A stretch of 64,000 nt of DNA from Myxococcales bacterium (GTDB lineage Bacteria > Myxococcota_A > Bradymonadia > UBA7976 > UBA1532): positions 517,359 through 581,358 of the forward strand of contig JACKDP010000001.1 of NCBI GenBank assembly GCA_020633435.1. The letters are read 5' to 3'. The translations under genes and the position numbers were made by a program. Shown piece after piece: positions 36,934 through 56,800 of the stretch. Numbering within the stretch: the first letter of the stretch is position 1; each line of letters starts with the position of its first letter. A model generated the notes under the pieces. The model was given only the letters and a program-made list of their open reading frames with translations. It did no database searches and was not told the origin of the DNA.

Positions 36934-37512
36934 ATGGCCCGCACCCCCTCGACCATGATCGCCCTGGGCACCCCCTGCCCCGACTTCGCCCTCCCCGACA
37001 CCGACGGCCGCACCGTCCGCCGCGACGACTTCGCCGACGCCCCGGCCCTGCTCGTCATGGTCCTCTGCAACCACTGCCCCTTCGTCGTGCACCTGCGCAG
37101 CGCCCTCGCCGCCTTCGGCCGCGAGTACCAGGCCCGCGGCCTCGCCATCGTGGCCCTCAACGCCAACGACGCCGACGCCTACCCCGCCGACGCCCCCGCC
37201 CAGATGCCCGCCGAGAAGGCCAGCGCCGGCTACACCTTCCCCTACCTGCACGACGCCACCCAGACCACCGCCCGCGCCCTCGGCGCCGCCTGCACCCCTG
37301 ACTTCTTCCTCTACGGCCCTGACCGCACGCTCATCTACCGCGGCCAGTTCGACGCCAGCCGCCCCGGCAACAGCGAGCCCATCACCGGCCAGGACCTGCG
37401 CGCCGCCTGCGACGCGGCGCTGGCGGGGGTGGAAGTGAGCGCCGAGCAGTGGCCGAGCCTGGGCTGCAACATCAAGTGGAAGCCGGGGAACGAGCCCTCA
37501 TATTTCGGGTAG
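36934..37512 (+). CDS. thioredoxin-fold (redoxin-family) protein; 3' end is the element insertion site
   Basis: CxxC motif LCNHCPF; last codons ...NIKWKPGNEPSYFG overlap the left att repeat. Confidence 0.7.
   Translation: MARTPSTMIALGTPCPDFALPDTDGRTVRRDDFADAPALLVMVLCNHCPFVVHLRSALAAFGREYQARGLAIVALNANDADAYPADAPAQMPAEKASAGYTFPYLHDATQTTARALGAACTPDFFLYGPDRTLIYRGQFDASRPGNSEPITGQDLRAACDAALAGVEVSAEQWPSLGCNIKWKPGNEPSYFG
37467..37496. repeat. attL: 30-bp direct repeat, left copy
   Basis: caacatcaagtggaagccggggaacgagcc, 29/30 identical to 53289-53318. Confidence 0.8.
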
Positions 37513-37643
37513 TTACGGGCCCATGGCAGGCGTCTGTACAGCCAAATCGGGCCATTTCCAGCCCGAAACCTGTACAACCTGTACAGCGAGATCGTGGTCG
37601 CTCCTCAACTCGTGCCAGGGCGGGATCACCTTCCTTGGGCTCC

Positions 37644-38348
37644 TCACGCCAGCTTCCCGGCCAGGGCGACCAACCAGTCCAGATAGAGGTCGAGGCGGGA
37701 TGTGCCGTTGACCTTGGTTCGCAGGAACTTCCCGAGGCTGTTCACCCCGCGCTCGCTCCGGCCCATGTCCCTGATCGTTGCGTCTCCTCCGACGGCGATG
37801 AGCCCGTCGTTCATCGTCGCCTTCGAGGCAGGACTGCGATGAGCCATGAAGTTCCGCATGGCCTTCACCGCATCAAAGGCGAGTCCGTCCGATGCTGTCA
37901 GCGCCGCGATCTTCGCCCGGTACGTCGGCGCCAGGCGTTGATCCGCTCGCTGCTTGAACGTCTCGAAGTCCTTGAACGAGAGGTTCCACCCATCGGGGTC
38001 GAGGATGCTCCTGAGATCGGTGAGCTTGACGTGCTTGCCGGGCTCGAACTCCACGGCGCCCGCGTGCCAGGCACCGAACTTGTCTGTGATCGAGGTGCGG
38101 ATGCGGTTCTTCTCGTGGGCGATGAAGCCGCTTGCATCCTTGTTGATGGCGGCGAGAACCCAGTCAGACAGGAACGTCTCCAACCCTACCGCTGCTGCCA
38201 GCAACGTGTTCTCGGCCAACGTCGCGATGTCCGTCTTCTCGTGGGCCGTGCCGCTCAAGGACGTGCTGACGCGGTTGTAGTACACCTTCAAGTCCCCGAG
38301 ATCCGCGGCGTAGCCCTGAGCCACCTCCGTCGGGTTCGCCTTGTTCAT
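37644..38348 (-). CDS. HEPN-like (Abi2-type) protein, candidate abortive-infection RNase
   Basis: 234 aa from internal ATG with GGAGGG RBS; RNxxxH motif (MRNFMAHR). Confidence 0.5.
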   Translation of the reverse strand: MNKANPTEVAQGYAADLGDLKVYYNRVSTSLSGTAHEKTDIATLAENTLLAAAVGLETFLSDWVLAAINKDASGFIAHEKNRIRTSITDKFGAWHAGAVEFEPGKHVKLTDLRSILDPDGWNLSFKDFETFKQRADQRLAPTYRAKIAALTASDGLAFDAVKAMRNFMAHRSPASKATMNDGLIAVGGDATIRDMGRSERGVNSLGKFLRTKVNGTSRLDLYLDWLVALAGKLA

Positions 38349-38423
38349 CAGCCCTCCATCCGTCCCCGTCCGCGCACATGCTGCCGTTGGCGAGCCTATA
38401 GCAGTCGGTCTGTGGAGGTCCAA

Positions 38424-38762
38424 GTGCCCACAGCTTCTCAAGTCGAACTCGATGAGCCCGACCGCCGGATCGACGCGCTGATCGACTACTTCGCCGACGA
38501 CGGCGACGACGCCCTCCGGGCATGGGCCGTAGAGGCCCTCGCTGGCGGCCTGGGCGTAGATGCAGTTGTCGTCGAGGGGGAGAGTGCGGCCCGGCGCCTT
38601 CGGGCGCTAGGGGACGCCCTGGGGGGCCGCCTGGCGCTCGCCATCTACCAGACGCCCGAGCAAGGCCCGAGGCTGGTCGAGGCCGTGCTGGAAGGGCTGC
38701 TGGTGGGCCTGCGGGACGGCCCGCCCGAGCCGGTCAGTGAGGTCGTGCGGCGCGGCCTGTGA
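38424..38762 (+). CDS. small hypothetical protein
   Basis: GTG with GGAGG RBS 5 nt upstream; 3' end overlaps the convergent gene by about 28 nt. Confidence 0.3.
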   Translation: MPTASQVELDEPDRRIDALIDYFADDGDDALRAWAVEALAGGLGVDAVVVEGESAARRLRALGDALGGRLALAIYQTPEQGPRLVEAVLEGLLVGLRDGPPEPVSEVVRRGL

Positions 38763-39357
38763 TGGCGTCGAACGCGGCGCCCTGCAAGTAGACGCCGCTG
38801 ATCCAGAAGTCGGCCAGCTTGTCGCCGTCCCAGTCGGACTCCACGAGCCGCGCCTTGACCAGGGTGCCGTCCTCCGCGAGCCGGTCGCGCAGCGCAACGC
38901 GACCCGCGAGGTCGAGTTCCGAGAACGTCGCCGACATCTCGGGGCTGACCGACATCAGACCGAACGAGAACTGCCCGATCTCGCCCATGACCGTGTAGAG
39001 ATCGAGGCCCATCGCGGGGACGGCGGCCAGCACCAGCAGGTCGGCTTCGACGGGATCGAGGCCATGCTCCTCACGCAGGTTGACCAGCGGCAGCGCAACC
39101 CCCGCCGCGGCGCTCGCCGCGATCCGGCGGTCGATCATGGTGCGCAGGTTGCCCTCCGCGGTGGCGAGGCGGGCGACCTTCTGCTTCGTCCGGCAGCACA
39201 CGCCGTCGGACTCCGCCGCGGCGTCGATCAGCCCCACGGCCTCGTCGGCTTCCTTGTCCGCCTCGATGCGGGCGCCAAGGTGGCGGCACCTGGCCTTCAC
39301 CCACCGGATCTCGTCCGCGAGGTGGTCGAGGGGGGTCGAGTACGCGAGGGTGTGCAT
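38734..39357 (-). CDS. hypothetical protein
   Basis: 207 aa from ATG 39357 with AAGGAG RBS; no recognisable motif. Confidence 0.45.
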   Translation of the reverse strand: MHTLAYSTPLDHLADEIRWVKARCRHLGARIEADKEADEAVGLIDAAAESDGVCCRTKQKVARLATAEGNLRTMIDRRIAASAAAGVALPLVNLREEHGLDPVEADLLVLAAVPAMGLDLYTVMGEIGQFSFGLMSVSPEMSATFSELDLAGRVALRDRLAEDGTLVKARLVESDWDGDKLADFWISGVYLQGAAFDAITGRAARPH

Positions 39358-39545
39358 GGCGGTGCTCCTTGCTCTCTGGGCCATGCCATCTACTACGCCT
39401 TCGGCCCCAGTCCTGAGCCCCTCCCCCGGCCCCCGGCGGCACCATCACGTCCCGATTTTTCGGGCTTTGACCCCGTTGCGGCGCGTGTCACCGCGCAGTA
39501 CAACCGCTGTGGCAACTTGCGGCAAACAACGGCGAGGACTGCACG

Positions 39546-39749
39546 GTGCCCGAGTACCTGACCATCGACGAGGTTTGCGAGCTTCTCCAGTTGGGCAAGC
39601 GCACCGTGTACGAGCTTGCCCGGACGGGCCGCTTGCCGGGCGCCGCGAAGATCGGCGGCCAGTGGAGGGTCAACCGGGCCAAGCTCGCCGCCTGGCTGGA
39701 GGCCGGGGGCGAGTTCGCCGCGGTCGAGGGGGGCGAGCGCGACGAATGA
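39546..39749 (+). CDS. excisionase/AlpA-family HTH DNA-binding protein
   Basis: LTIDEVCELLQLGKRTVYELARTGRLPGAAKIGGQWRV; stop overlaps the SNF2 start (ATGA). Confidence 0.65.
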   Translation: MPEYLTIDEVCELLQLGKRTVYELARTGRLPGAAKIGGQWRVNRAKLAAWLEAGGEFAAVEGGERDE

Positions 39750-42595
39750 CGACCCCCTACCATGCGCAGTTCTGGGCCTACACGTTGACCGTACAGGGGT
39801 CGCCGGACTCGGTGGACGGCCTGTCGCGGGCCATCTCGAACGCCCGCGTAGACCTGAACCCGCACCAGGTAGACGCAGCCCTGTTCGCCCTCAAGTCGCC
39901 GCTGTCGAAGGGCGTCATCCTCGCCGACGAGGTGGGCCTCGGGAAGACCATCGAGGCCGCCCTGGTGATCTCGCAGCGATGGGCGGAGCGCCGCAGGCAC
40001 ATCCTCGTCGTGGTGCCCGCCTCGCTGCGGAAGCAGTGGCAGCAGGAGTTGTGGGAGAAGTTCTTCATCCCCTCGGTGGTGCTGGAGCGCAAGTCGTGGA
40101 CGCGGCTCCAGGCCGAGGGCAAGCCCAACCCCTTCGACCTCGGCGATCAGGTCGTCATCTGCTCCTACTACTTCGCCGCCAAGCACCGGGAGGCCGTGGC
40201 CCACGTCCCGTGGGATCTGGCCGTCATCGACGAGGCCCACCGGCTGCGAAACGTCTACAAGAAGGGCAACAAGACGGCGAAGGCCCTGTCCGCGGGCCTG
40301 GCCCACGCCACGAAGCTCCTGCTGACCGCGACGCCGCTCCAGAACTCGCTGATGGAGTTGTACGGCCTCGCCAGCGTCATCGACCCGCACCTGTTCGGTG
40401 ACCCCATCTCCTTCCGCGAGCAGTTCGTCCGCGAGGCGGACGAGGGCGTGCGGAACCGGCTGTTGAAGCAGCGCATCGCCGAGGTCTGCCAGCGCACCCT
40501 GCGGCAGCAGGTGCTGGAGTACGTCCGGTTCACGGAGCGCATCCCGGTGACGCAGGAGTTCTTCGCCAGCGACGCCGAGCAGCGGCTCTACGACGAGGTG
40601 TCCGAGTACCTCCGCCGCGACACCCTGTACGGCCTCCCGTCGGCCCAGCGGACGCTGATGACGATGGTGCTGCGGAAGCTGCTGGCCTCGTCGTCCTTCG
40701 CCATCGGCGGCACCCTCGACGGCCTGTTGTACCGCCTCCGGCAAGTGCAAGAGGACGTGCGCAAGGGCACCGCGGTCGCCCTGCACGATGCCGTGGAGGA
40801 CGACTTCGAGACGGTGGACGAGATCGAGGACGACTGGGAGGAGGACGAGGCCACCGACGCCAACGGCGACGACATCGACCCCGCCCTGCTGGCCGACGAG
40901 ATCGCCATCATCGAGGCGTGCTCCAAGCTCGCCGCGGGCATCCATTCCAACGCCAAGGGCGACGCCCTCCTGCGGGCACTCGCGCAGGCGTTCGAGCAGG
41001 CCGAGGCCGTGGGCGCCGCGAAGAAGGCGGTGGTGTTCACGGAGTCCCGGCGCACGCAGGACTACCTGTACCGGCTGCTGACCGCGAACGGCTACGAGGG
41101 CCGCGTCGTGATGATCAACGGCAGCAACAACGACGAGGCCGCCAAGGCCGTCTACGCGGAGTGGATGACCCGGCACGCGGACGACGGGGTGCCCACCGGC
41201 GCCCGCGCCGTCGATGTCCGGGCCGCCATCACCGAAGCGTTCAAGACCGACGCCACCATCCTGCTGGCGACCGAGGCCGCCGCGGAAGGCGTCAACCTCC
41301 AGTTCTGCTCCCTGGTCTTCAACTACGACTTGCCCTGGAACCCCCAGCGGGTCGAGCAGCGGATCGGGCGCTGCCACCGCTACGGCCAGACCCATGACGT
41401 GGTGGTCGTCAACTTCGTCAACGAGCGCAACGCCGCCGACCGCCGCGTCCTCGACCTGCTGTCCGAGAAGTTCAGGCTGTTCGAGGGGGTCTTCGGCGCC
41501 TCCGACGAGGTGCTCGGCGCCATCGAGTCCGGCGTGGACATCGAGCGGCGCATCGCGGCCATCTACCAGGGCTGCCGCACCGCCGAGGACATCGCCGCCG
41601 CCTTCGACGACCTGCGGGCCGACCTCGACGAGCAGATCACCGCGCAGATGAGCGAGACGCGGCAGCGCCTGCTCGACCACTTCGACGAGGACGTGCAGGC
41701 CCGCCTCCGCGTCCACCGCGACCTGGCCCAGGCGTCGCTCGACGAGAGGGGCCGGATGCTGTTGAACCTCACCCGGCACGAGCTTGGGGACGACGCCTCC
41801 TTCGCACCTGACCGGCCCCGGTTCGAGTACCACGGCACCGCGGCTCGTCGCGGGTGGTACAGCCTCGACTGGAAGGCGGCGGACGCCGAGGGCCTGGTCT
41901 TCTACCGCATCGACCACCCCCTCGCGCAGGGCATCGTCGAGCAGGCCCGCCAGCGACAGCTTCCCGTGCAGCACCTGGCCTTCGACTACGGCGCCTACGG
42001 CACGTCGGTCGCGGTGCTGGAGCCGTACATCGGTCGCCGGGGCTGGCTGGCGTGCAGCCTGCTGACGGTGAACTCGGTGGCCGACGAGCAGTTCGTCGTC
42101 CTGGCCGCGGTGACCGACGACGGCGAGGTGCTCGACGCCGAGTGGTGCCGACGCCTCATGCGCATCGGAGCCGCCGCCGAGGGAACGCCCGAGGCGCCCG
42201 CGGATCTGGAGCCCGCGGTCACCGGCCAGGTCGAAGGCCACCTGCGCGACGTGGAGGCCCGCAACGGGCGCTACTTCGACGCCGAGGTGTCGAAACTCGA
42301 CCGCTGGTCAGACGACCTCAAGCTCGGCCTGGAGCGGGAGTTGAAGGACTTGGACGCCGAGATCCGGGCGAAGCGCAAGGAGTCCGCGGTCGCCATCTCA
42401 CTGGCGGACAAGCTCACGGCGCAGCGGGACATCAAGGCGCTGGAGCAGCGCCGGAACCGCAAGCGGCGGGATCTGTACGAGGAACAGGACAAGATCGACG
42501 AGCAACGGGCAGCACTCATCGACGGGATCGAGCGGCAGCTTCGCACCACACATGCGGTGCAGCGCCTGTTCACCGTCCGGTGGAGCATCCGATAG
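39746..42595 (+). CDS. SNF2-family helicase
   Basis: 949 aa: LADEVGLGKTIEA (motif I), VIDEAHRLRN (DEAH), LLLTATPLQNSL, C-terminal helicase motifs and coiled-coil tail. Confidence 0.85.
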   Translation: MTTPYHAQFWAYTLTVQGSPDSVDGLSRAISNARVDLNPHQVDAALFALKSPLSKGVILADEVGLGKTIEAALVISQRWAERRRHILVVVPASLRKQWQQELWEKFFIPSVVLERKSWTRLQAEGKPNPFDLGDQVVICSYYFAAKHREAVAHVPWDLAVIDEAHRLRNVYKKGNKTAKALSAGLAHATKLLLTATPLQNSLMELYGLASVIDPHLFGDPISFREQFVREADEGVRNRLLKQRIAEVCQRTLRQQVLEYVRFTERIPVTQEFFASDAEQRLYDEVSEYLRRDTLYGLPSAQRTLMTMVLRKLLASSSFAIGGTLDGLLYRLRQVQEDVRKGTAVALHDAVEDDFETVDEIEDDWEEDEATDANGDDIDPALLADEIAIIEACSKLAAGIHSNAKGDALLRALAQAFEQAEAVGAAKKAVVFTESRRTQDYLYRLLTANGYEGRVVMINGSNNDEAAKAVYAEWMTRHADDGVPTGARAVDVRAAITEAFKTDATILLATEAAAEGVNLQFCSLVFNYDLPWNPQRVEQRIGRCHRYGQTHDVVVVNFVNERNAADRRVLDLLSEKFRLFEGVFGASDEVLGAIESGVDIERRIAAIYQGCRTAEDIAAAFDDLRADLDEQITAQMSETRQRLLDHFDEDVQARLRVHRDLAQASLDERGRMLLNLTRHELGDDASFAPDRPRFEYHGTAARRGWYSLDWKAADAEGLVFYRIDHPLAQGIVEQARQRQLPVQHLAFDYGAYGTSVAVLEPYIGRRGWLACSLLTVNSVADEQFVVLAAVTDDGEVLDAEWCRRLMRIGAAAEGTPEAPADLEPAVTGQVEGHLRDVEARNGRYFDAEVSKLDRWSDDLKLGLERELKDLDAEIRAKRKESAVAISLADKLTAQRDIKALEQRRNRKRRDLYEEQDKIDEQRAALIDGIERQLRTTHAVQRLFTVRWSIR

Positions 42596-42603
42596 GAGCG
42601 GGG

Positions 42604-44427
42604 ATGTCGAAGAAGACGAAGCTGGAACTGACCTGGATCGGCAAGGACAAGCGGCCCCGCCTGGAGCCGCGCATCCTGCTCGAAGATCCCGAACTGAGCT
42701 ACGCCGCCGACCATCGGGTTCGGCAGGGCGACATCTTCGACAACATGCTGATCCACGGAGACAACCTGCTGGCTTTGAAGGCGCTGGAGCAGGACTTCAC
42801 CGGCGCCTTCAAGTGCGTCTACATCGACCCTCCGTTCAACACCCAGCAGGCGTTTGAGCACTACGACGATGGCGTGGAGCACTCGGTCTGGCTGTCACTC
42901 ATGCGCGAGCGCCTCTCCATCGTCCACCGGCTCATGCACCCCGAGGGGACGCTGTTCGTCCACATCGACGACAACGAGCTTGGCTACCTGATCGTCCTCC
43001 TCGACGAGGTGTTCGGGCGCACCAACCGCGTGTCCATCGTCACATTCAAGCAGGGCTCGGCGACCGGCCACAAGGCCATCAACCCCGGCTGCGTGACGAC
43101 CACGAACTTCGTGCTGATGTACGCCAAGGACAAGGCAGCCTGGAAGCCGCGGAGGGTCTTCACGGCTAGGGAGCGAGACAATCGCTACAACCAGTTCATT
43201 CCGAACATCGGCGACCACCACTCCAAGTGGCGAATCGTGACGCTGATGACCGCCTTCGCCGCCAGCCAGGGGGTCACGGAGACACAGGCCAGGGGTCTGG
43301 CTCGCAAGCAGCCCGACCAACTGGACGAGTTCGTGAAGGACAACGGGCCGAGCGTGGTGCGTCTCGCAAGGCCGTCCTACGACGCCGTCAGCAAGGCTGC
43401 CCAGGCGCTCATCGACGAGTCGAACGCGAACCCCGAAGTGGTGTTCCACCTCCCGCGGGAGGGGCACAAGGACTTCTACTTCATCCGGGGCGAACGAATC
43501 CTGTTCTACAAGGACAAGCTCAGGGAGATCGACGGGCAGTACGTTGCGGGTGAGCCGCTCACGACGCTCTGGGACGACCTCCTCTCCAACAACTTGCACA
43601 ACGAAGGTGGGGTCAGCTTCCCCAAGGGGAAGAAGCCCGAAGCCCTGATCAAGAGGGTCATCGACCTGTCCACCGAGCCCGGTGACTGGGTGCTCGACTC
43701 GTTCGCAGGCTCGGGCACGACGGGGGCGGTGGCCCACAAGGCCGGTCGAAGGTGGGTGATGGTCGAACTCGGTGACCACTGCCATACCCATGTCCTTCCC
43801 CGGCTCCGAGCGGTTATTGACGGGGCCGATTCCAGCGGGAGCACGCAGGCAACCCGATGGAAAGGCGGCGGCGGCTTCCGCTTCTGCCGCCTCGCGCCCT
43901 CCCTACTGGAGGAGGACAAGTGGGGCAACTGGGTCATCAACCGGGCCTACAACAAGGAGATGCTGGCGGAGGCCATGTGCAAGATCGAGGGCTTCCGCTA
44001 CGAGCCGAGCCCGACCATCTTCTGGATGCACGGCCAGTCCACCGAGACGGACTACCTCTACGTCACCACGCAGACCCTGACCCACGAGCAGTTGCAGGTC
44101 ATCAGCGCGGAGGTCGGTGACGAGCGCACGTTGCTCATCTGCTGCTCGGCCTTCCGAGCGCGGCTCGACCAGTTCCCGAACCTCACGGTGAAGAAGATCC
44201 CCGCAGCGGTGCTCGAACGCTGCGAGTGGGGCAAGGACGACTACTCGCTGAACGTCCAGACGGTCATGGGAGAGGAGCCCGAGGCGCCCGAGCCTGAACC
44301 CGACCAGTCCGCGGGCGCCACCGTGCCGCCGCCATCGTCGAAGAAGCGCAAGGGCCGCAAGCCGAAGATGCAGGAGTTGCCGCTGTTCGCCGCGGCCCAC
44401 CATGGCAAGTCGGGAGGTGACCAGTGA
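42604..44427 (+). CDS. Type III R-M Mod-like N6-adenine DNA methyltransferase
   Basis: DPPF motif (CVYIDPPFNT) precedes the SAM motif (VLDSFAGSGTTG). Confidence 0.85.
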   Translation: MSKKTKLELTWIGKDKRPRLEPRILLEDPELSYAADHRVRQGDIFDNMLIHGDNLLALKALEQDFTGAFKCVYIDPPFNTQQAFEHYDDGVEHSVWLSLMRERLSIVHRLMHPEGTLFVHIDDNELGYLIVLLDEVFGRTNRVSIVTFKQGSATGHKAINPGCVTTTNFVLMYAKDKAAWKPRRVFTARERDNRYNQFIPNIGDHHSKWRIVTLMTAFAASQGVTETQARGLARKQPDQLDEFVKDNGPSVVRLARPSYDAVSKAAQALIDESNANPEVVFHLPREGHKDFYFIRGERILFYKDKLREIDGQYVAGEPLTTLWDDLLSNNLHNEGGVSFPKGKKPEALIKRVIDLSTEPGDWVLDSFAGSGTTGAVAHKAGRRWVMVELGDHCHTHVLPRLRAVIDGADSSGSTQATRWKGGGGFRFCRLAPSLLEEDKWGNWVINRAYNKEMLAEAMCKIEGFRYEPSPTIFWMHGQSTETDYLYVTTQTLTHEQLQVISAEVGDERTLLICCSAFRARLDQFPNLTVKKIPAAVLERCEWGKDDYSLNVQTVMGEEPEAPEPEPDQSAGATVPPPSSKKRKGRKPKMQELPLFAAAHHGKSGGDQ

Positions 44428-47400
44428 ACCGCCTCGTCAACACCATCTCGGGTCGTCTGAGCCTCCGGCCCCCGCAGCGCCAGTCGCTGGAGATCCTCGA
44501 CCGCATCTGCGAGATCGCTGACCCGACCAAGGCGACCGATCTCGCAACCGCGCTCGGGATCATCAAGTCCGAGTACCCGTCGGTCACCGACTTCGAGCGG
44601 GACTTCCCCTCGCTGTGCTTCGCCCTCGCCACCGGCGTCGGCAAGACCCGGCTCATGGGCGCCTTCATCAGCTACCTCTACCTGACCAAGCGAAGCCGCC
44701 ACTTCTTCGTGCTGGCGCCCAACCTGACCATCTACAACAAGCTGATCGCCGACTTCACCCCCGGCACGCCCAAGTACGTCTTCCAGGGGATCTCGGAGTT
44801 CGTGACCGCCCCGCCGGTCATCATCACCGGCGACAACTACGAGAGCGGCGTCGGCGTCCGAGAGGAGGCCCGGCGCCAGATGGGCCTGTTCCGGCCCGGC
44901 GGCGAGGATGCCGTCCACATCAACGTCTTCAACATCAGCAAGTTCAACAAGGACACGGGGGGCAGGAAGGGCTCGCCCAGGATGCGGCGCCTGTCGGAGT
45001 ACATCGGTGAGAGCTACTTCGACTACCTGGCCGGGCTCGACGACCTGGTGGTGCTCATGGACGAGGCCCACCGCTACCGCGCCGACGCGGGTATGAAGGC
45101 CATCAACGAGTTGAAGCCCATCTTGGGCCTGGAGTTGACGGCGACCCCCTTCACCGAGTCGGCGAAGGGGCCGGTGGCCTTCGGCAACGCCATCTACGCC
45201 TACTCGCTGGCCGAGGCCATCGTGGACGGGTTCGTGAAGGAGCCCGCGGTCGCCACCCGCAAGGACTTCGACGCCAGCCAACTCGACGACGCGAAGTTGG
45301 AACGCATCAAGCTGGAGGACGGCGTGCGCTTGCACGAGCAGGTCAAGGCCGACCTCCAAGCCTACGCCGCCAACACCGGGCGCCCCTACGTCAAGCCGTT
45401 CATGCTGGTCATCGCCCGCGACACGACGCACGCCTCGGCCCTGATCGACCTGTTCAAGTCCGAGACGTTCTTCGAGGGGCGCTACGCCGACCGCGTGATC
45501 GAGGTTCACTCGGCCCTCAAGGGCGAGGAGAAGGAGGAGACGGTTGAGCGGCTGCTGGCCGTGGAAGACCCCGCCGAGCAGACGGAGATCGTCATCCACG
45601 TCAACATGCTCAAGGAGGGGTGGGACGTAACGAACCTCTACACCATCGTCCCGCTGCGGGCCGCCAACGCCCGCACCCTCATCGAGCAGTCCATCGGTCG
45701 CGGCCTGCGGCTGCCCTACGGCAAGCGTGTCCGCAAGTACGGCCTGCCCCCCACCCACCCTGCCGACCGGCTCACCATCGTCGCCCACGACAAGTTCCAA
45801 GAGATCGTGGACGAGGCCAACCGCGGTGACTCCATCATCCGCCGCATCGACACCATCTACATCGACCCGGAGGAGGCCGCCGACGCTCCGAAGCCGGTCG
45901 AGGTGCCCCCGCTGGTCGAGCAGATTCTTGGCGGAGCCGACCGGCCTACGGTGCCGGGCCTCGGCCCCGCCCCCGCGGGTGACCCGGCCCAGGGCACCGC
46001 CCCCACCCTGCCGACCAAGAAGACGCCGACGTTCCTGACGCCCACGGCGAAGGCGGTGGCGAAGGCGACGCTGACGGCGATCACCAAGAAGACCACGTTG
46101 CCGTCGGCGAAGACGCTTCTGCAACCGGAGCAGCAGAAGAAGCTGGTCGAGGAGGTGAAGGCGCAACTTCCCGACCAGCAGGAGCTACCGGGCATCGAGT
46201 CGGAGATCGAGGAGGTCGTCAAGCAGGCCACCGAAGCCTACGTTGACCTCTCCATCGACATCCCCGAGGTGACCGTCGTGCCCACCGGCGAGGTCACCAT
46301 CGTCTACGCCGACTTCGACCTCGACACGTCCAAGCTGCCTGCGCTCCAGCCCGTCGAGCGGGACATCTACATCCAACACCTGGCGAGCCACGAGCAGCAG
46401 CAGTTGTCTTCCGGCGGTGGTGGTGTCGGCTACGAGCGGCGCCTGGAAGATCACGTTGTCCGGGCGCTCATCGACTTCGACGACGTGGACTACGACGGCA
46501 ACGCCGACCTGCTCTACAAGCTCGCGGGCCAGATGGTCGCCCACCTCCAGGGCTACCTGCCCGACGAGGAGGCCGTGAAGAACGTGCTGGTCTACTACCA
46601 GTCGCGGATCGGCAACCTCGTCCACGGCCAGATGCTGGCCCACCGGCACGAGTTGACGACCGGCTACGAGGTGAAGGTGCTGTCCGGGCACCGTCCGCTC
46701 CAGCCCTCGGTGATCAAGCTCAAGCCGAGCGAGTCCCCCCGGAACTTCCGGGCGCCGGTGGACGACAAGCGCCGCATCCCGCAGATGGTGTTCGGCGGCT
46801 TCTCGAAGTGCTTGTACCCGCTCCAGAAGTTCCACTCGGACTCGGAGCGCCGGTTCGCGGTGCTGCTGGAGATGGACAAGGCCGTGCAGAAGTGGGTGAA
46901 GCCTGCGCGGGCGAACTTCCAGATCGTCCTCAAGGGCGGCTCGCTCTACGAGCCGGACTTCGTGGTCGAGGCCGACGACGCCTTCTACATCGCCGAGGTC
47001 AAGGCCGAGGGCATGGTGCAGGAGGCCGACGTGCTGGCGAAGGCCGAGGCCGCCGCGGTGTGGTGCAGGTCGGCGACGCAGGAGGGGGCGGGCGCCAAGC
47101 CCTGGCACTACCTGCTCATCCCCGCGGACAAGATCGCCGAGAACGCCTCGTTGGCGTGGCTGGCGAAGCAGTACGAGCACAAGGCCAGCGCCCCCGCCGA
47201 GGTCGTGTCCGAGGACGCGGGCGCCAAGGTGCTGCCGTTCAAGAAGCTGGAGGGCACGGAGATCAGGCCCTTCGAGAACTGCGTGCCGCTCTACGCCGAC
47301 CTCAGGATCGCCGCGGGCCGCTTCGGCGAGGAGCTGGCCGTGGACGCGGTGCCCCAGCAGGGCGAGGTGGAGAACCCCGAGGACTACGAGTGGGTCGCCT

Positions 47401-47744
47401 ACCGGGGGAGTTCCCGGCCCCGTCGCGGCCTGTTCGTAGCCCAGGTGGTCGGCGAGTCCATGAACAAGCGCATCCCCAACGGCGCCTGGTGCGTGTTCAA
47501 CCTCGAACACGGGGCCGATGGCGAAGGTGAGATCGTCCTCGCCCGGCACGACGAGATCCACGACGGCGACCTCGGCCAGTTCACCGTGAAGTTCTACCAG
47601 CGCGAGGTGCTCGACGACGACGGCGTGCGGATCACGCTGCGGCCCTCGTCCAGCGACCCGCAGTTCAAGAAGCCCATCGTGCTGGAGAACCTGGCCGAGG
47701 GCGACCTGCGGATCGTGGCCGAGTTCGTCGAGGTGCTGCGGTAG
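44424..47744 (+). CDS. Type III Res-like helicase-endonuclease fused to a LexA/UmuD-like S24 domain
   Basis: 1106 aa: Walker A (ATGVGKTRL), DEAH (VLMDEAHRY), PD-(D/E)xK-like nuclease motif (EPDFVVEADDAFYIAEVKAEG), then about 150 aa resembling an S24 peptidase (GESM, TVKF); GTG overlaps Mod stop. Confidence 0.8.
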   Translation: MNRLVNTISGRLSLRPPQRQSLEILDRICEIADPTKATDLATALGIIKSEYPSVTDFERDFPSLCFALATGVGKTRLMGAFISYLYLTKRSRHFFVLAPNLTIYNKLIADFTPGTPKYVFQGISEFVTAPPVIITGDNYESGVGVREEARRQMGLFRPGGEDAVHINVFNISKFNKDTGGRKGSPRMRRLSEYIGESYFDYLAGLDDLVVLMDEAHRYRADAGMKAINELKPILGLELTATPFTESAKGPVAFGNAIYAYSLAEAIVDGFVKEPAVATRKDFDASQLDDAKLERIKLEDGVRLHEQVKADLQAYAANTGRPYVKPFMLVIARDTTHASALIDLFKSETFFEGRYADRVIEVHSALKGEEKEETVERLLAVEDPAEQTEIVIHVNMLKEGWDVTNLYTIVPLRAANARTLIEQSIGRGLRLPYGKRVRKYGLPPTHPADRLTIVAHDKFQEIVDEANRGDSIIRRIDTIYIDPEEAADAPKPVEVPPLVEQILGGADRPTVPGLGPAPAGDPAQGTAPTLPTKKTPTFLTPTAKAVAKATLTAITKKTTLPSAKTLLQPEQQKKLVEEVKAQLPDQQELPGIESEIEEVVKQATEAYVDLSIDIPEVTVVPTGEVTIVYADFDLDTSKLPALQPVERDIYIQHLASHEQQQLSSGGGGVGYERRLEDHVVRALIDFDDVDYDGNADLLYKLAGQMVAHLQGYLPDEEAVKNVLVYYQSRIGNLVHGQMLAHRHELTTGYEVKVLSGHRPLQPSVIKLKPSESPRNFRAPVDDKRRIPQMVFGGFSKCLYPLQKFHSDSERRFAVLLEMDKAVQKWVKPARANFQIVLKGGSLYEPDFVVEADDAFYIAEVKAEGMVQEADVLAKAEAAAVWCRSATQEGAGAKPWHYLLIPADKIAENASLAWLAKQYEHKASAPAEVVSEDAGAKVLPFKKLEGTEIRPFENCVPLYADLRIAAGRFGEELAVDAVPQQGEVENPEDYEWVAYRGSSRPRRGLFVAQVVGESMNKRIPNGAWCVFNLEHGADGEGEIVLARHDEIHDGDLGQFTVKFYQREVLDDDGVRITLRPSSSDPQFKKPIVLENLAEGDLRIVAEFVEVLR

Positions 47745-51587: not shown

Positions 51588-52072
51588 CCGAACATGCGCA
51601 GCTCGACATCCCCGCCTTGGTGGAGGAGATCAACGCCGCCGAGGACGACCCGATGTGGAAGGCGTGGACGAAGGATCGCCTGCGGCTCCAAGACCAACTT
51701 CACGAGCTTCGCGCCGTCCGAGATGCTCTCGCCCGCAAGCTCCGGGCATTGGCGCCCACGACGCCGGGCGGGGACAAGAGGCCCATGACCCGGCGGGAGC
51801 AGCGGATGGCGATGGGCGGCGGCGGCCTGTGGCCGCTGGCCCAGGCTGCGGAGATGCTGCCCATGAAGGACAACGAGGCGAGGGGCTGGCTGCGCAACGA
51901 AGGGCTCGTCGGCGACCTGGCCGGGCGTGAGGTCGTGCATTGGGGCCGCGTGCTCGACGCGCCCTACGCCACGAAGGATGAGGCGCCGTCGGTGCCTGCG
52001 AAGCAGGAGACACGGCGCCGGAAGCCGCTCCCGCGGGTGCGCCTCGGTGGCTCGTCGGGGGCGTCACGATGA
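51584..52072 (+). CDS. hypothetical protein
   Basis: ATG overlaps the previous stop; stop overlaps the integrase start. Confidence 0.4.
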   Translation: MTEHAQLDIPALVEEINAAEDDPMWKAWTKDRLRLQDQLHELRAVRDALARKLRALAPTTPGGDKRPMTRREQRMAMGGGGLWPLAQAAEMLPMKDNEARGWLRNEGLVGDLAGREVVHWGRVLDAPYATKDEAPSVPAKQETRRRKPLPRVRLGGSSGASR

Positions 52073-53202
52073 GCCCTCCAAGGAGTGCGCGACCCAAGCC
52101 CTTCTCGCTCGACATGATCAAGTGCCGGATCGTCCGCGGGCCGCACCCGGACGACCCGAACCGTTGGTACTGGCAGGCGGTCACCTACGGAGACGGTGAG
52201 CAGCGCACCATCTGGACGGGTTGGGGGTCGGTCGAGGAGGTGAAGGCCGCGCTGGCGCCGTTGCTGATGGGGATGCAGGCGGCCCCGTCGCGCCGTGAAG
52301 ACCGGGTGTCCACTGTGCAGGATCTCCTTGAGGTCTGGTTGGCGTGGCAACTCGGCCAACCGAACCTGAGCGAAGGGCGCAAGCTCAACTCGAAGAAGGA
52401 GGCAGAGCACGTCGCCGCCGTGATCGGTGATGTGCTCATCCTGCGGCTCGACACGACGACCCTGACGGAGTACCAGCGCGTGCGGCTGCGCGAGGGGGCC
52501 TCGACCGGCGTGATCCGCAACGAGATCAGCACCGTGATCCAGGCGTGGAACTGGGGCGGGGAGCGTGGGCTCGCACCGGAGCGGCGGCTGCGACGCCCCC
52601 GTTTGCAGCACAAGTCTGTGCGGAACGACTACGTTCCCGACCTGGTGGAGTTCTGGAAGGCCGTGGACGCGCTGCCCGACTCCAGACCCTGGGCTCGCAC
52701 CATGCTCCTCCTGCTGGGTGCGACGGGGGCGAGGCCAAGCGAGATCGCCGCCCTGACCTGGGAGGACATCCACTGGCGACGCCGTACCGTCCGTCTGGAC
52801 GGCAAGACCGGGAAGCGCCTGGCAGTCGTGAGCCAAGAGGTCTTGGACGAGTTGGCGCCGCACCGCCCCGACCCCGCGACTGGCCGCGTCCTCTCCGTGA
52901 GCTTGACCACGGCACGGGTGGACATCCGCAAGATCCTGCGGGACGCCTGCGTTGCGGCCAACGTGACGCCGTTCCTCCCGATGTCCATCCGCAAGATGGT
53001 CGAGAACGCGATGTTCGACGCTGGGGCCGACCCCGGCGTCGTCTCCCGGCAGCTTGGGCACACGCCGGAGGTGTCCTTGAGGCACTACCGCAGGGCGAAG
53101 TCGGCTCGCGTGGACGAGGTTCTCGCTCGTGCGGGCATCGGCACCAGGCCGGACGGCAACGTCGTGTCGCTGGCCGAGCACCGCAAGGCCAAGGACTCGT
53201 GA
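52069..53202 (+). CDS. tyrosine-type site-specific integrase
   Basis: Catalytic-domain motifs (LLGATGARPSEIAALTWEDI; LGHT...SLRHY) with the Tyr near the C-terminus. Confidence 0.85.
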   Translation: MSPPRSARPKPFSLDMIKCRIVRGPHPDDPNRWYWQAVTYGDGEQRTIWTGWGSVEEVKAALAPLLMGMQAAPSRREDRVSTVQDLLEVWLAWQLGQPNLSEGRKLNSKKEAEHVAAVIGDVLILRLDTTTLTEYQRVRLREGASTGVIRNEISTVIQAWNWGGERGLAPERRLRRPRLQHKSVRNDYVPDLVEFWKAVDALPDSRPWARTMLLLLGATGARPSEIAALTWEDIHWRRRTVRLDGKTGKRLAVVSQEVLDELAPHRPDPATGRVLSVSLTTARVDIRKILRDACVAANVTPFLPMSIRKMVENAMFDAGADPGVVSRQLGHTPEVSLRHYRRAKSARVDEVLARAGIGTRPDGNVVSLAEHRKAKDS

Positions 53203-53288
53203 CCTGTACAGCCCGACCTGTACAGCCGCAGGAGCGGCTGTCGTAACATGCTGAAACCATGCGACAAGCTGGCACAGGTGGCGGCGTT

Positions 53289-53318
53289 CAACATCAAGTG
53301 GAAGCCGGGCAACGAGCC
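53289..53318. repeat. attR: 30-bp direct repeat, right copy
   Basis: caacatcaagtggaagccgggcaacgagcc, followed in frame by the likely original gene tail (...NEPTTNLYA, stop). Confidence 0.8.
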
Positions 53319-53406: not shown

Positions 53407-55497
53407 TCAGGACGTGAGGCGGTCGAAAGCCTGCTGGCGGGCCAGGAGCGTAGGCGACGGGGGCTCGCCCGCGAGGCGGTCGAAGCGGTCAGTGAGCAAC
53501 TTCTGCATCAGCTCGGTATGCGCCGCCGGCAGGCGCTCGAAGTGGGGCCAGAGGAGGTCCAGCGCCTCGTCCGCGGCGGCGCGGGCCTCGGCGGCCCGGC
53601 CGAGGGCAGCGAGGACGTCGCCGCTGCTGTCCATCGCGTTTGCAAGGTCAGGCTCGAACGCGTCCGGACGCGACGACGCAAGACGGCGATAGATACCCAC
53701 CGCCTCCGCCGTCGCTGACAACGCCTCCTCAAGACGACCCAACGATGAGATGTCACCGCCCAGGTTGTTGAGGCTCATGGCAAGGTCAGGCTCGAACGCG
53801 TCCGGACGCGACGACGCAAGACGTCGATACACGTCCACCGCCTCCGCCGTCGCTGACAACGCCTCCTCAAGACGACCCAACGATGAGAGCCGATTGCCCA
53901 GGTTGACCAGGCTCATGGCAAGGTCAGGCTCGAACGCGTCCGGTCGCGACGACGCAAGATGCCGATACACGTCCACCGCCTCCGCCGTCGCTGACAACGC
54001 CTCCTCAAGACGACCCAACGATGAGAGCCGATTGCCCAGGTTGACCAGGCTCATGGCAAGGTCAGGCTCGAACGCGTCCGGACGCGACGACGCAAGATAC
54101 CGATACACCTCCACCGCCTCCGCCGTCGCTGACAACGCCTCCTCTCGACGACCCAACGACGAGAGGTCAACGCCCAGGTTGTTCAGGCCACCCGCAAGGT
54201 TCGGCTCGAACGCTTCAAGACGCGACGACGCAAGACGGCGATAGATACCCACCGCCTCCATCGTCGCTGACAATGCCTCCTCAAGACGACCCAACGATGA
54301 GAGTCGATTGCCCAGGTTGTTCAGGCTCATGGCAAGGTCTGGCTCGAACGCGTCCGGACGCGACGACGCAAGACGGCGATCGAGACCCACCGCCTCCGTC
54401 GTCGCTGACAACGCCTCCTCAAGACGACCCAAAGATGAGAGCCGATTGCCCAGGTTGTTCAGGCTCGTGGCGAGGTCAGGCTCAAACGCGTCTGGACGCG
54501 ACAGTGCAAGACGGCGATAGATACCCACCGCCTCTGTCGTCGCTGACAACGCCTCCTCTCGACGACCCAACGAGGAGAGCCCAATGCCCAGGTCGGTCAG
54601 GCTCATGGCAAGATCGGGTTCGAACGCGTCCGGACGCGACGACGCAAGACGGCGATAGATACCCACCGCCTCCGCCGTCGCTGACAACGCCTCCTCTCGA
54701 CGACCCAACGACGCAAGGTCACGGCCCAGGCTGGTCAGCGCCCTCGCAACGTCTGCGTCCGGGCGTGCCGACGCGAGGCCTCTGTAGGACCCCACGGCTT
54801 CCGTTGACGCCGATAACGCTTCTGCGACCTCGTTCGCCAGGCCCATGTGCCCACTCCGCACCAAGGCCGCCAGCGCGCCAACCATCGCGTCGAAGCGCGC
54901 CGGATCCTCGGGAGCAAGCGCGAGCGCCGCTCGCGCCCGTCGCTCGGCGAGCTCCACCTCGGCAGGCGAGGCCCCATCTGACCGTTGCACGGGCGAAGTA
55001 ACATCGGGCTGCGAGACAGGAACCGGCGCGACCATCGGCTCAACAAGCAGGGTGTTGATAGACCAGAGATCGGGCGCAGCCAGCCGCACTACCGGCCGGG
55101 CCCACGCGGGCATGGCCACGACCAGGGCGTGCAGCCCGGATCGGCGCAGCGGCTCTCGGTGCTCGTTCCAGCGTTGTGCCGCGTTGAACCATGCGGTTCG
55201 CCAATCCTGCTCCGGACCAAAGGCCTCGCACCAGACCACGCCCCCTCTGGGCGCCGCCAGGATGCGACCGAGTGCGTCGCTCAGGTCCCCCGGATGCTCG
55301 CAGAGAACGGTCTCGATCGGCCAGCCACGGGCACCCGCCAGCGCCATCGTTCGGGCCCGAAGAATTCGAGCTGGAAAGCGGTCTGCCGCGACCACCGTCG
55401 CGATGACGAACCGATCTGCGAAATCCAGGAGATCACTGAGCAATTCCCAGGGCCGCTCCTCCAGGAGCGGCTGCGCTGCGAGGTGGTCTTCGGCCAC
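53407..55497 (-). CDS. TPR-like repeat protein (about nine 46-aa repeats), partner of the upstream NTPase
   Basis: Repeat unit RPDAFEPDLAMSLNNLGNRLSSLGRLEEALSATAEAV.VYRRLASS; GTG start 4 nt after the NTPase stop (ORF extends to 55554). Confidence 0.65.
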   Translation of the reverse strand: MAEDHLAAQPLLEERPWELLSDLLDFADRFVIATVVAADRFPARILRARTMALAGARGWPIETVLCEHPGDLSDALGRILAAPRGGVVWCEAFGPEQDWRTAWFNAAQRWNEHREPLRRSGLHALVVAMPAWARPVVRLAAPDLWSINTLLVEPMVAPVPVSQPDVTSPVQRSDGASPAEVELAERRARAALALAPEDPARFDAMVGALAALVRSGHMGLANEVAEALSASTEAVGSYRGLASARPDADVARALTSLGRDLASLGRREEALSATAEAVGIYRRLASSRPDAFEPDLAMSLTDLGIGLSSLGRREEALSATTEAVGIYRRLALSRPDAFEPDLATSLNNLGNRLSSLGRLEEALSATTEAVGLDRRLASSRPDAFEPDLAMSLNNLGNRLSSLGRLEEALSATMEAVGIYRRLASSRLEAFEPNLAGGLNNLGVDLSSLGRREEALSATAEAVEVYRYLASSRPDAFEPDLAMSLVNLGNRLSSLGRLEEALSATAEAVDVYRHLASSRPDAFEPDLAMSLVNLGNRLSSLGRLEEALSATAEAVDVYRRLASSRPDAFEPDLAMSLNNLGGDISSLGRLEEALSATAEAVGIYRRLASSRPDAFEPDLANAMDSSGDVLAALGRAAEARAAADEALDLLWPHFERLPAAHTELMQKLLTDRFDRLAGEPPSPTLLARQQAFDRLTS
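53510..54890. repeat. 138-bp tandem repeats (about 9 copies), coding
   Basis: The motif gtcaggctcgaacgcg recurs at 138-bp spacing; central copies nearly identical. Confidence 0.8.
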
Positions 55498-55501
55498 CGG
55501 G

Positions 55502-56800
55502 CTAGCTCGCGGCCTGTGATTCCAGACGGTCTGCGAGATCGAGAACGACGTCACGAACGATGGGGTGGACGTCGTACCACTCCGACCCGTTCTGGTAGCA
55601 GAGCACCAGGTGGCTGTCGAAGTACCGCGCCAGGCTGCCCAGGCCCTCCAGGTCCCTCAACTCGGCCTCGTGGGAGCGAGCGATCCGAGCCAGCCACCGA
55701 ACGTCCTCATGAGGAATCGGGGTGAACTGGGCCCGCAAGCGCTCCAGGGCAGCCCGGCGCGCGTCGGCCGATGCCGGCAGCGTGCGAGCCTCCAGGGCGA
55801 CGGTCTGCAGGACGCGGACGAGGTCGCGCAGGTGCCCGCCCGTCGCCAGAATCAGCTCCTCGAGAGCGTCGCGATCGCCCAGAACCACCGACCAGTCCGT
55901 GCGCTTGCCGACGAGCTGGACGAGACGCTCGATCCCAGGCGCGTAGGGCTGGCCGTCGCCATCGTCGACATAGGCCCGGACCTTCTGAGCGGGCAACGTC
56001 AGCAGGCCCGCTCCCGAATACGGGCTGCCGATGTTCGGCCGGCGGATGCGGAGCCAGGGCGGGACCGTATAGATGACATGGGTGGATGGCAGCTTGAGCT
56101 TGTCATCGTGGTCGGCGAACAAGCGTTCGAGTGACTCATGCACCCGCGCCTCGGTCTCATTGGTCCCACGGGCATGCTCGACCGAGTCGACGAGGACGAC
56201 GAGTGCCGTGCCCGGTCGGGCTGCCTCCAGCGCGAGTACACACTCCGCGACAAACCCACGCACCTCCCTGGCGAACGCGCCCAGGCTGGTCCCGAGCGCC
56301 TTCTGCACTTCCTGGCGAAAGAGCGGGTTGCTCTTGAGCTCTACCTTCATCCCCGCGAGGCTCACGTCCTTCAACGTGACGATGGTCCCGGTGACGAAGC
56401 CCCAGAGGCGCTGGCCGAGCGCGGCTCGCGCCGGGCTCTCCGGCAGGAGCGCTTCGTCGGTGAGCTTCTCGGCCAGGGCACCACAGAGGGCCAGCAGGAA
56501 GTCGGTGATGTCGATGGGGGTGTGGAGATCCAGGTAGTCCTCCACGTCGATGAGAACGACCGTGTAGTCCTCAGCGCCCAACTCACTGCGCAGACGCCTC
56601 AGCTCGGTGCTCTTGCCTGCGCCGCGGTAGCCGGACAGCAGCTGAGCACTCTCGCCCTCGGAGAACAGGATGGTCTCTTTGAGGCGAAGCACGACGTCGG
56701 ACTGGTCCTCGTACAGCGGGTAGTAGCGGGGGTCCTCCGGGTTCAACGGCACGTCAGCCATCTCTCGGAAGAAGCGCTGCCGCCGGTCGCGATCGGTCAT
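55502..56800 (-). CDS. P-loop NTPase (AAA/STAND-like)
   Basis: Walker A LLSGYRGAGKSTEL; Walker-B-like ALVVLVDSVEH; helical C-terminus. Confidence 0.65.
   Translation of the reverse strand: MTDRDRRQRFFREMADVPLNPEDPRYYPLYEDQSDVVLRLKETILFSEGESAQLLSGYRGAGKSTELRRLRSELGAEDYTVVLIDVEDYLDLHTPIDITDFLLALCGALAEKLTDEALLPESPARAALGQRLWGFVTGTIVTLKDVSLAGMKVELKSNPLFRQEVQKALGTSLGAFAREVRGFVAECVLALEAARPGTALVVLVDSVEHARGTNETEARVHESLERLFADHDDKLKLPSTHVIYTVPPWLRIRRPNIGSPYSGAGLLTLPAQKVRAYVDDGDGQPYAPGIERLVQLVGKRTDWSVVLGDRDALEELILATGGHLRDLVRVLQTVALEARTLPASADARRAALERLRAQFTPIPHEDVRWLARIARSHEAELRDLEGLGSLARYFDSHLVLCYQNGSEWYDVHPIVRDVVLDLADRLESQAAS

Follow-up and report, generated by a model that had tools for sequence, protein, structure and literature searches.

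A solo HEPN-like protein carried on an integrated element of a Myxococcales bacterium

HEPN ribonucleases (RNases) are among the commonest effector modules in prokaryotic immunity and toxin systems. Here we describe a gene for a stand-alone HEPN-like protein of 234 amino acids (aa), located in a 64,000-nucleotide (nt) stretch of a Myxococcales bacterium genome assembly (contig JACKDP010000001.1, positions 517,359 to 581,358; hereafter the window, in whose coordinates all positions are given), where it is cargo of a precisely bounded 15.8-kb integrative element. Although divergent, the protein genuinely belongs to the HEPN superfamily, and its gene is as such a known kind of bacterial defence or toxin gene.

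The nearest described group is RiboL-PSP-HEPN, which is characterized by an Rx4-6H motif, fusions to endoRNase L-PSP and ParB operons, and is a remote relative of AbiF and AbiD (Anantharaman et al. 2013, PMC3710099). Its Pfam model, PF18735, is the best-matching model for the family of relatives that we assembled around the 234-aa protein, and the Rx4-6H motif is common to both. There is also a likeness in gene context, as a GmrSD_N/DUF262 gene, which belongs to the ParB-like family of the published ParB operon, lies directly upstream of one distant relative (locus L041) and forms a BLAST triplet with the upstream open reading frames (ORFs) of two other loci, L044 and L047. The differences are substantial: the 234-aa protein itself is unmatched by the model and the family consensus falls under its cut-off, none of about 150 listed representatives is long enough to be an endoRNase L-PSP fusion, and the gene is solo, no ParB/DUF262 gene having been found in the 37-57 kb region of the window.

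Two recently characterized HEPN systems that consist of one protein each, ApeA and DARNA, cut tRNA in the anticodon loop on activation by an infection-derived ligand. ApeA (PF18739), a single-gene anti-phage tRNA anticodon nuclease, resembles the 234-aa protein in being a stand-alone HEPN protein without a partner gene, and the Apea-HEPN model gives near-threshold matches both to the consensus of our family and to 14 of the 85 family members that we aligned. According to its preprint, ApeA forms large ligand-activated oligomers and has a separate ligand pocket, whereas the 234-aa protein is known here from its sequence and a monomer model. ApeA and DARNA provide the best working analogy for it. 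AbiD and AbiF (Abi_2, PF07751) share with it a HEPN assignment and an R-N-x-x-x-H-type motif; in contrast to AbiF, for which upstream tandem repeats acting as RNA antitoxins are reported, none were found upstream of the 234-aa gene. The HepT toxins of HEPN-MNT toxin-antitoxin systems (PDB 5yep, 7ae2 and 8xdj) share only 7-14% sequence identity with it, and at about 130-150 aa they lack both the helical insert of the 234-aa protein, which adds roughly 80 residues (about 73-150), and its C-terminal extension.

A divergent HEPN family

The gene occupies 37644..38348 on the minus strand and encodes a basic protein (isoelectric point (pI) 9.0) identical to a public sequence, P0001, that is listed as a 'hypothetical protein' of a Myxococcales bacterium metagenome-assembled genome (MAG). 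It is contained within a longer, TTG-opened minus-strand ORF at 37644-38441. The 234-aa form starts from an ATG at 38346-38348 that follows GGAGG by 4 nt, and this start agrees with those of relatives, M1, K3 and P6 being invariant among the 14 closest. The first-pass annotation of this DNA had singled out the protein for an RNFMAH motif, which is indeed present: on sequence and conservation, the Rx4H HEPN motif is R165-N-F-M-A-H170 (codons 37839..37856, minus strand), followed by R171 and S172, within AMRNFMAHRS at residues 163-172. By our rough estimate, a bare Rx4H occurs by chance in about one in four proteins of this size, and the weight of the motif therefore comes from its conservation in relatives.

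Finding those relatives took considerable depth. A word-indexed homology search with the 234-aa query returned only the query itself, and a family profile returned just 4 proteins. An exhaustive HMMER scan of 1.84 billion representatives yielded 402 with an E value of 1e-3 or lower, 220 of which reach E<=1e-10; with few exceptions they are 225-240 aa long, and they align end to end. The family thus found comprises about 400 clusters at 50% identity, nearly all annotated 'hypothetical protein', and is distributed widely, if patchily, over bacterial phyla, plasmids and prophage-like contigs. No NCBIfam model covers it, and one plasmid relative is named 'HEPN domain-containing protein' by PGAP.

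Conservation was counted in the alignment of 85 sequences, whose members are 23-39% identical to the 234-aa protein. E57 and R165 are invariant (85/85), and H170, S172 and R218 are each present in 84 sequences; position 166 is Asn in 73 and Asp in 11, together again 84. The motif consensus is AIRNxIAHRS, and the family can be summarized by a conserved R-N/D-x3-H-x-S together with invariant E57 and near-invariant R218. Across all fetched sequences, R[NDHSTQ]xxxH is found in 142 of 151, most of the others being fragments. A second conserved region, an LDPxGxNxTF loop, lies in the family-specific helical insert at residues 73-150, as does a near-invariant N122.

When each of the 85 members was scanned against Pfam, PF18735 was matched by 29, with a best E value of 1.8e-8; further matches were to Swt1-HEPN (18 members), Apea-HEPN (14), MAE_28990-HEPN (6), pEK499_p136 HEPN (4) and Abi_2 (2). 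The gathering cut-off of PF18735, 28.4 bits, was passed by two of 18 individually tabulated members, P0086 (34.9 bits) and P0058 (28.7 bits), and the family consensus sequences span positions 2-175 of the 191 in that model. Against Apea-HEPN, for which the cut-off is 24.4 bits, the consensus scored 23.8. Because the 234-aa protein matches no model but does match P0086 (E 9.9e-19), which passes PF18735, its membership rests on transitive homology.

The predicted fold is consistent with this assignment. Given an alignment, AlphaFold2 returned an all-helical model of very high confidence, with a predicted local distance difference test score (pLDDT) of 97.4 and a predicted template modelling score (pTM) of 0.92; from the single sequence, pLDDT was just 39.6. 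The model has a HEPN-type all-alpha fold with a four-helix up-and-down core.

Placement of the 234-aa protein in the HEPN superfamily is thus well supported. The first-pass annotation had read it as a HEPN protein, a reading borne out by the conservation of R165 and H170 and by the matches of relatives to HEPN models in Pfam. It had also associated the motif with Abi2-type proteins. Here the profiles disagree, as Abi_2 is matched by only two of the 85 family members, at E 0.0068 or weaker, and not by the 234-aa protein. The family stands beside RiboL-PSP-HEPN and Apea-HEPN as a sister or an outlier, not as a clean member of either, and is not Abi_2. At the level of the clade the Abi association was roughly right, given the distant kinship of RiboL-PSP-HEPN with AbiF and AbiD.

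That another HEPN RNase should turn up is unsurprising, given how common such effectors are. What is gained is a sizeable, well-defined family of solo HEPN proteins of about 230 aa, of which standard annotation libraries miss the 234-aa protein and most tabulated members, along with a confident structural model and a set of candidate catalytic residues, R165 and H170, with E57, S172 and R218.

The composition of the gene sets it apart from its surroundings. As the first-pass annotation had noted, TTG and ACG are used unusually often: TTG accounts for 24% of Leu codons, versus 1% in 18 core genes and 9% in the other genes of the element, and ACG for 65% of Thr codons, versus 48% in core genes. 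Its guanine-plus-cytosine (GC) content is 63.1%, that of the element 67.7% and that of the left flank 76.1%. In scans of 37300-39800, no promoter of the sigma-70 type and no convincing terminator were found, nor any RNA family or antitoxin-like repeat.

Near-identical copies of one family member occur in a Ramlibacter MAG (Betaproteobacteria; L002, 614-1321) and a Xanthomonadaceae MAG (Gammaproteobacteria; L003, 6001-6708), the latter flanked by ORFs that, judging their translations by eye, resemble IS3-family transposase genes. The near-identity of these copies and the IS3-like flanks indicate recent horizontal transfer.

Genomic neighbourhoods and proposed function

To place the family in context, 53 loci of relatives were fetched from genomes, metagenomes and viral contigs using a six-sequence alignment, and three plasmid regions were added. 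Mobile-element or prophage genes recur around the relatives, including integrases, resolvases, relaxases, transposases, phage portal proteins and ImmA/IrrE-type peptidases. So do defence genes, comprising AbiU2, AbiTii, a CAP12-type TIR protein, DUF4062, Mrr, GmrSD_N/DUF262, an MmeI-like methylase with SNF2, an SMC-like ATPase, Shedu and DruA. On small conjugative plasmids, relatives lie near Shedu, resolvase and helicase/methylase genes. When 150 neighbour proteins, drawn from 41 non-redundant loci, were pooled and scanned with Pfam, no family came up more than twice, and all-against-all BLAST of flanking proteins produced clusters that correspond to near-duplicate loci plus a few pairs and triplets. 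What recurs across relatives is a type of neighbourhood, made up mostly of mobile-element and defence genes, and not any one neighbour.

The best explanation, and one that we consider probable, is that the protein is a stand-alone HEPN-fold RNase effector with an abortive-infection role, from an under-annotated clade next to RiboL-PSP-HEPN and Apea-like HEPN. By analogy with characterized HEPN enzymes, it would form a homodimer in which two Rx4H motifs build one metal-independent RNase site, and would cut cellular RNA, tRNA anticodon loops or mRNA being the likeliest targets. As an abortive-infection or growth-arrest effector, it might shield the host, and hence the element, from phage. Autoinhibition or oligomeric state would probably keep the enzyme inactive until an infection cue activates it; we propose this form of control, and consider an adjacent protein antitoxin unlikely, because no neighbour is conserved across the relatives.

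Several results weigh against this explanation. Taken alone, the 234-aa protein has no match in Pfam, NCBIfam, PADLOC or PDB sequences; in the PADLOC scan its sole match was a weak one to Cas8b (E 0.046), with no match to an ApeA model. The family consensus scores 23.0 and 24.8 bits against PF18735, below the cut-off. A Foldseek search of the model against PDB and BFVD returned nothing significant. Finally, the defence role draws on impressions of neighbourhoods rather than on measured enrichment.

A more specific version of the same idea, which we put forward tentatively, is a compact single-gene anti-phage HEPN RNase of about 230 aa that has a built-in infection sensor, needs no partner and spreads on integrative elements, plasmids and prophages. 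The sensor might be the helical insert at residues 73-150 with its LDPxGxNxTF loop; more generally, we speculate that this insert is a candidate regulatory element. Should the family turn out to act in defence autonomously, the small size of its members would recommend them as a convenient model of how a minimal HEPN enzyme senses infection.

A different possibility, which we consider rather unlikely, is that the protein serves as a back-up effector tied to a restriction-modification (R-M) and helicase module, as PrrC is to EcoprrI, with the RNase kept silent by the restriction complex and released when a phage disables restriction. The gene lies 1.2 kb from an operon encoding a helix-turn-helix (HTH) protein, a DrmD-like SNF2 helicase and the Mod and Res subunits of a Type III system, and several HEPN families are located in R-M operons (Anantharaman et al. 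2013, PMC3710099). Like PrrC and RloC, it would be an RNA-targeting effector beside an R-M module on mobile DNA, and could be analogous in logic. Two relatives abut an MmeI-like methylase (L016 and L024), one of them also a SNF2 helicase (L016), and the plasmid relatives mentioned above lie near helicase and methylase genes. However, methylase families account for only two of the 150 neighbour proteins from the 41 loci, so that most relatives have no R-M genes nearby, and the 234-aa gene is opposite in strand to the operon, with two genes between. PrrC, moreover, is encoded within its R-M operon and contains an ABC-ATPase domain, whereas the 234-aa protein has no ATPase domain and lies outside the operon. 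L016, L024 and the plasmids lend slight support to a PrrC-like functional link with the Type III/DrmD module, but such a link is not general to the family.

The first-pass annotation had suggested that one of the two neighbouring ORFs could be a cognate antitoxin or partner. Under such a toxin-antitoxin arrangement, which we judge decidedly unlikely, a basic HEPN toxin would be neutralized by the divergent acidic 112-aa protein or by the acidic winged-helix protein encoded upstream. The charges are complementary (pI 9.0 versus 4.3 and 4.95), the divergent start codons are just 75 bp apart, and the three genes occur together on every independent contig, though these contigs represent the same element at 99.9-100% identity. 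Yet tblastn with the winged-helix protein and the 112-aa ORF found no relative of either beside the HEPN relatives in the 53 loci, and because neither recurs there the antitoxin idea is unsupported; the absence of any neighbour family seen more than twice points the same way. For both neighbours, relatives of any kind are almost absent. Encoded on the opposite strand, the 112-aa ORF is not co-transcribed with the HEPN-like gene, and the winged-helix gene ends 385 bp upstream of the HEPN-like start codon. An MNT-type nucleotidyltransferase, the partner in known HEPN toxin-antitoxin pairs, is found neither adjacent to the 234-aa gene, in a further difference from HepT, nor among the listed neighbour families of its relatives. 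As for an RNA antitoxin, the upstream region (38349-38733) contains no direct-repeat families and no Rfam match, a single weak 12-nt array (38680-38721, score 40) being all that was detected there, and so gives no sign of one.

It is very improbable that the protein is inert or a non-defence helical regulator or scaffold of the mobile element with an incidental Rx4H, as its own lack of a family match and the chance frequency of the bare motif would allow, since R165, N/D166, H170 and S172 are near-perfectly conserved at such low overall identity and relatives match HEPN models.

Some individual loci are of interest in their own right. In three of them a same-strand gene directly upstream of the relative encodes a protein that has an R-x4/5-H motif too, so that the two genes resemble a tandem HEPN-like pair (L004, 3109-4035; L013, 1495-2316; L022, 738-1499); the upstream proteins have the motifs RNDAVGH, RCHSAH and RNDAGH, respectively, and that of L022 weakly matches DUF4145. 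In L016 (564-6862) the family member has a 1140-aa SNF2 helicase on one side and the MmeI-like methyltransferase on the other, each no more than 3 bp away. The family member of L024 (254-4745) directly precedes a 1360-aa MmeI-like methyltransferase. The arrangement is operon-like and echoes the helicase/methylase setting of the window. The mobile element that carries the P0150 relative (L005, 1-13757) has relaxase and coupling-protein genes; close to the relative are a DruA gene, a Multi_ubiq/Prok-E2/ThiF cluster and an integrase, and a 163-aa Ribosomal_L12-domain protein is encoded directly downstream.

Neighbouring genes and the integrated element

The 112-aa ORF (38424..38762, plus strand; pI 4.3) is divergent from the HEPN-like gene and has a GTG start with GGAGG 5 nt upstream. 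It shows coding periodicity (GC1 0.88, GC2 0.46, GC3 0.82). We considered whether it could be an antisense shadow of the HEPN-like gene, as its open frame runs from 37449 and is mostly shadow; this was rejected on the grounds that the periodicity persists past the HEPN-like gene, that the ORF has its own ribosome-binding site and that it appears in public gene calls. It is probably a gene.

The 207-aa winged-helix protein (38734..39357, minus strand; pI 4.95) starts at an ATG after AGGAG and lies upstream of the HEPN-like gene on the same strand. It matches the Pfam winged-helix domain (WHD) model PF22977 at E 6e-20, the match covering residues 10-189 of a 216-aa form and model positions 8-187 of 221. 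Only two relatives were found, of 233 aa and 124 aa. In view of PF22977 architectures, we considered that this ORF might be the truncated N terminus of an AAA ATPase; the near-full model match, the 233-aa length of the sole full-length relative and interruptions in the downstream minus-strand frames ruled this out. The two ORFs overlap convergently by 29 bp at their 3' ends, as had been described in the first-pass annotation. That annotation had also found both to be without recognizable motifs, which holds for the 112-aa ORF, for which library scans gave no family match, and fails for the winged-helix protein. Of five independent contigs with public gene calls, every one has the 112-aa ORF and three have the 207-aa form, with sizes that agree exactly.

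The element extends from about 37.5 to 53.3 kb. Its left boundary is a 30-nt direct repeat (attL core, 37467..37496) in the 3' end of an AhpC/TSA-family gene at 36934-37512, and its right boundary a second copy (attR core, 53289..53318) located 87 nt downstream of a plus-strand tyrosine integrase gene (52069..53202; Pfam Phage_integrase, E 3.5e-14). The repeat reads CAACATCAAGTGGAAGCCGGG[G/C]AACGAGCC, the copies being identical at 29 of 30 positions. The HEPN-like gene, located a short way in from attL and within the pair of direct repeats that bracket the integrase, is cargo of this element; its placement at the left edge of an element by the first-pass annotation was exact, the repeat being just outside the gene. 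Left of 37.5 kb the GC content is 76%; taken kilobase by kilobase, it drops to 64-70% from about 37 to 57 kb. Contigs of four other assemblies (L054-L057) are 100% identical to the window and all stop at 37458-37467, at the left repeat, as expected where an assembly graph branches at an element boundary. These ends, all no more than 10 nt from the left repeat, suggest that the samples of the four assemblies contain the occupied form together with an empty or excised one.

The element also contains the plus-strand operon at 39546..47744, which Pfam and PADLOC resolve into HTH_17, the DrmD-like SNF2 helicase, a Type III methyltransferase and a Type III restriction subunit (PADLOC E values of 2.8e-203 for DrmD, 8.9e-186 for MTase_III and 7.2e-221 for REase_III). 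The HTH_17 protein (PADLOC 'mad1', E 3.5e-10) overlaps the start of the helicase gene by ATGA (39546-44427, plus strand). The module is thus a helicase-augmented Type III R-M system; other DISARM genes are not in it. The Res subunit (44424-47744, plus strand; 1106 aa) has a C-terminal LexA-like Peptidase_S24 domain at residues 981-1099 (E 1e-6). Such a fusion is unusual, and hints that restriction may be regulated by self-cleavage or in a damage-linked way. The remaining genes of the element encode several HTH proteins and a resolvase.

The element supplies a replacement C terminus for the AhpC/TSA protein (…NEPSYFG*), and the displaced original end (…NEPTTNLYA*) is found at the right repeat. 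A short way in from either end of the element (37534-37594 and 53201-53227) are clustered several copies of CCTGTACAGC, a word with the palindrome CTGTACAG in it; these copies may be recombinase arm sites. Just outside the right repeat (53407-56800, minus strand), where GC content is still lower (65-68%), are genes for a 715-aa TPR protein and a 432-aa AAA_16/STAND-like NTPase, a stretch that may represent a second defence-type insertion at the same hotspot.

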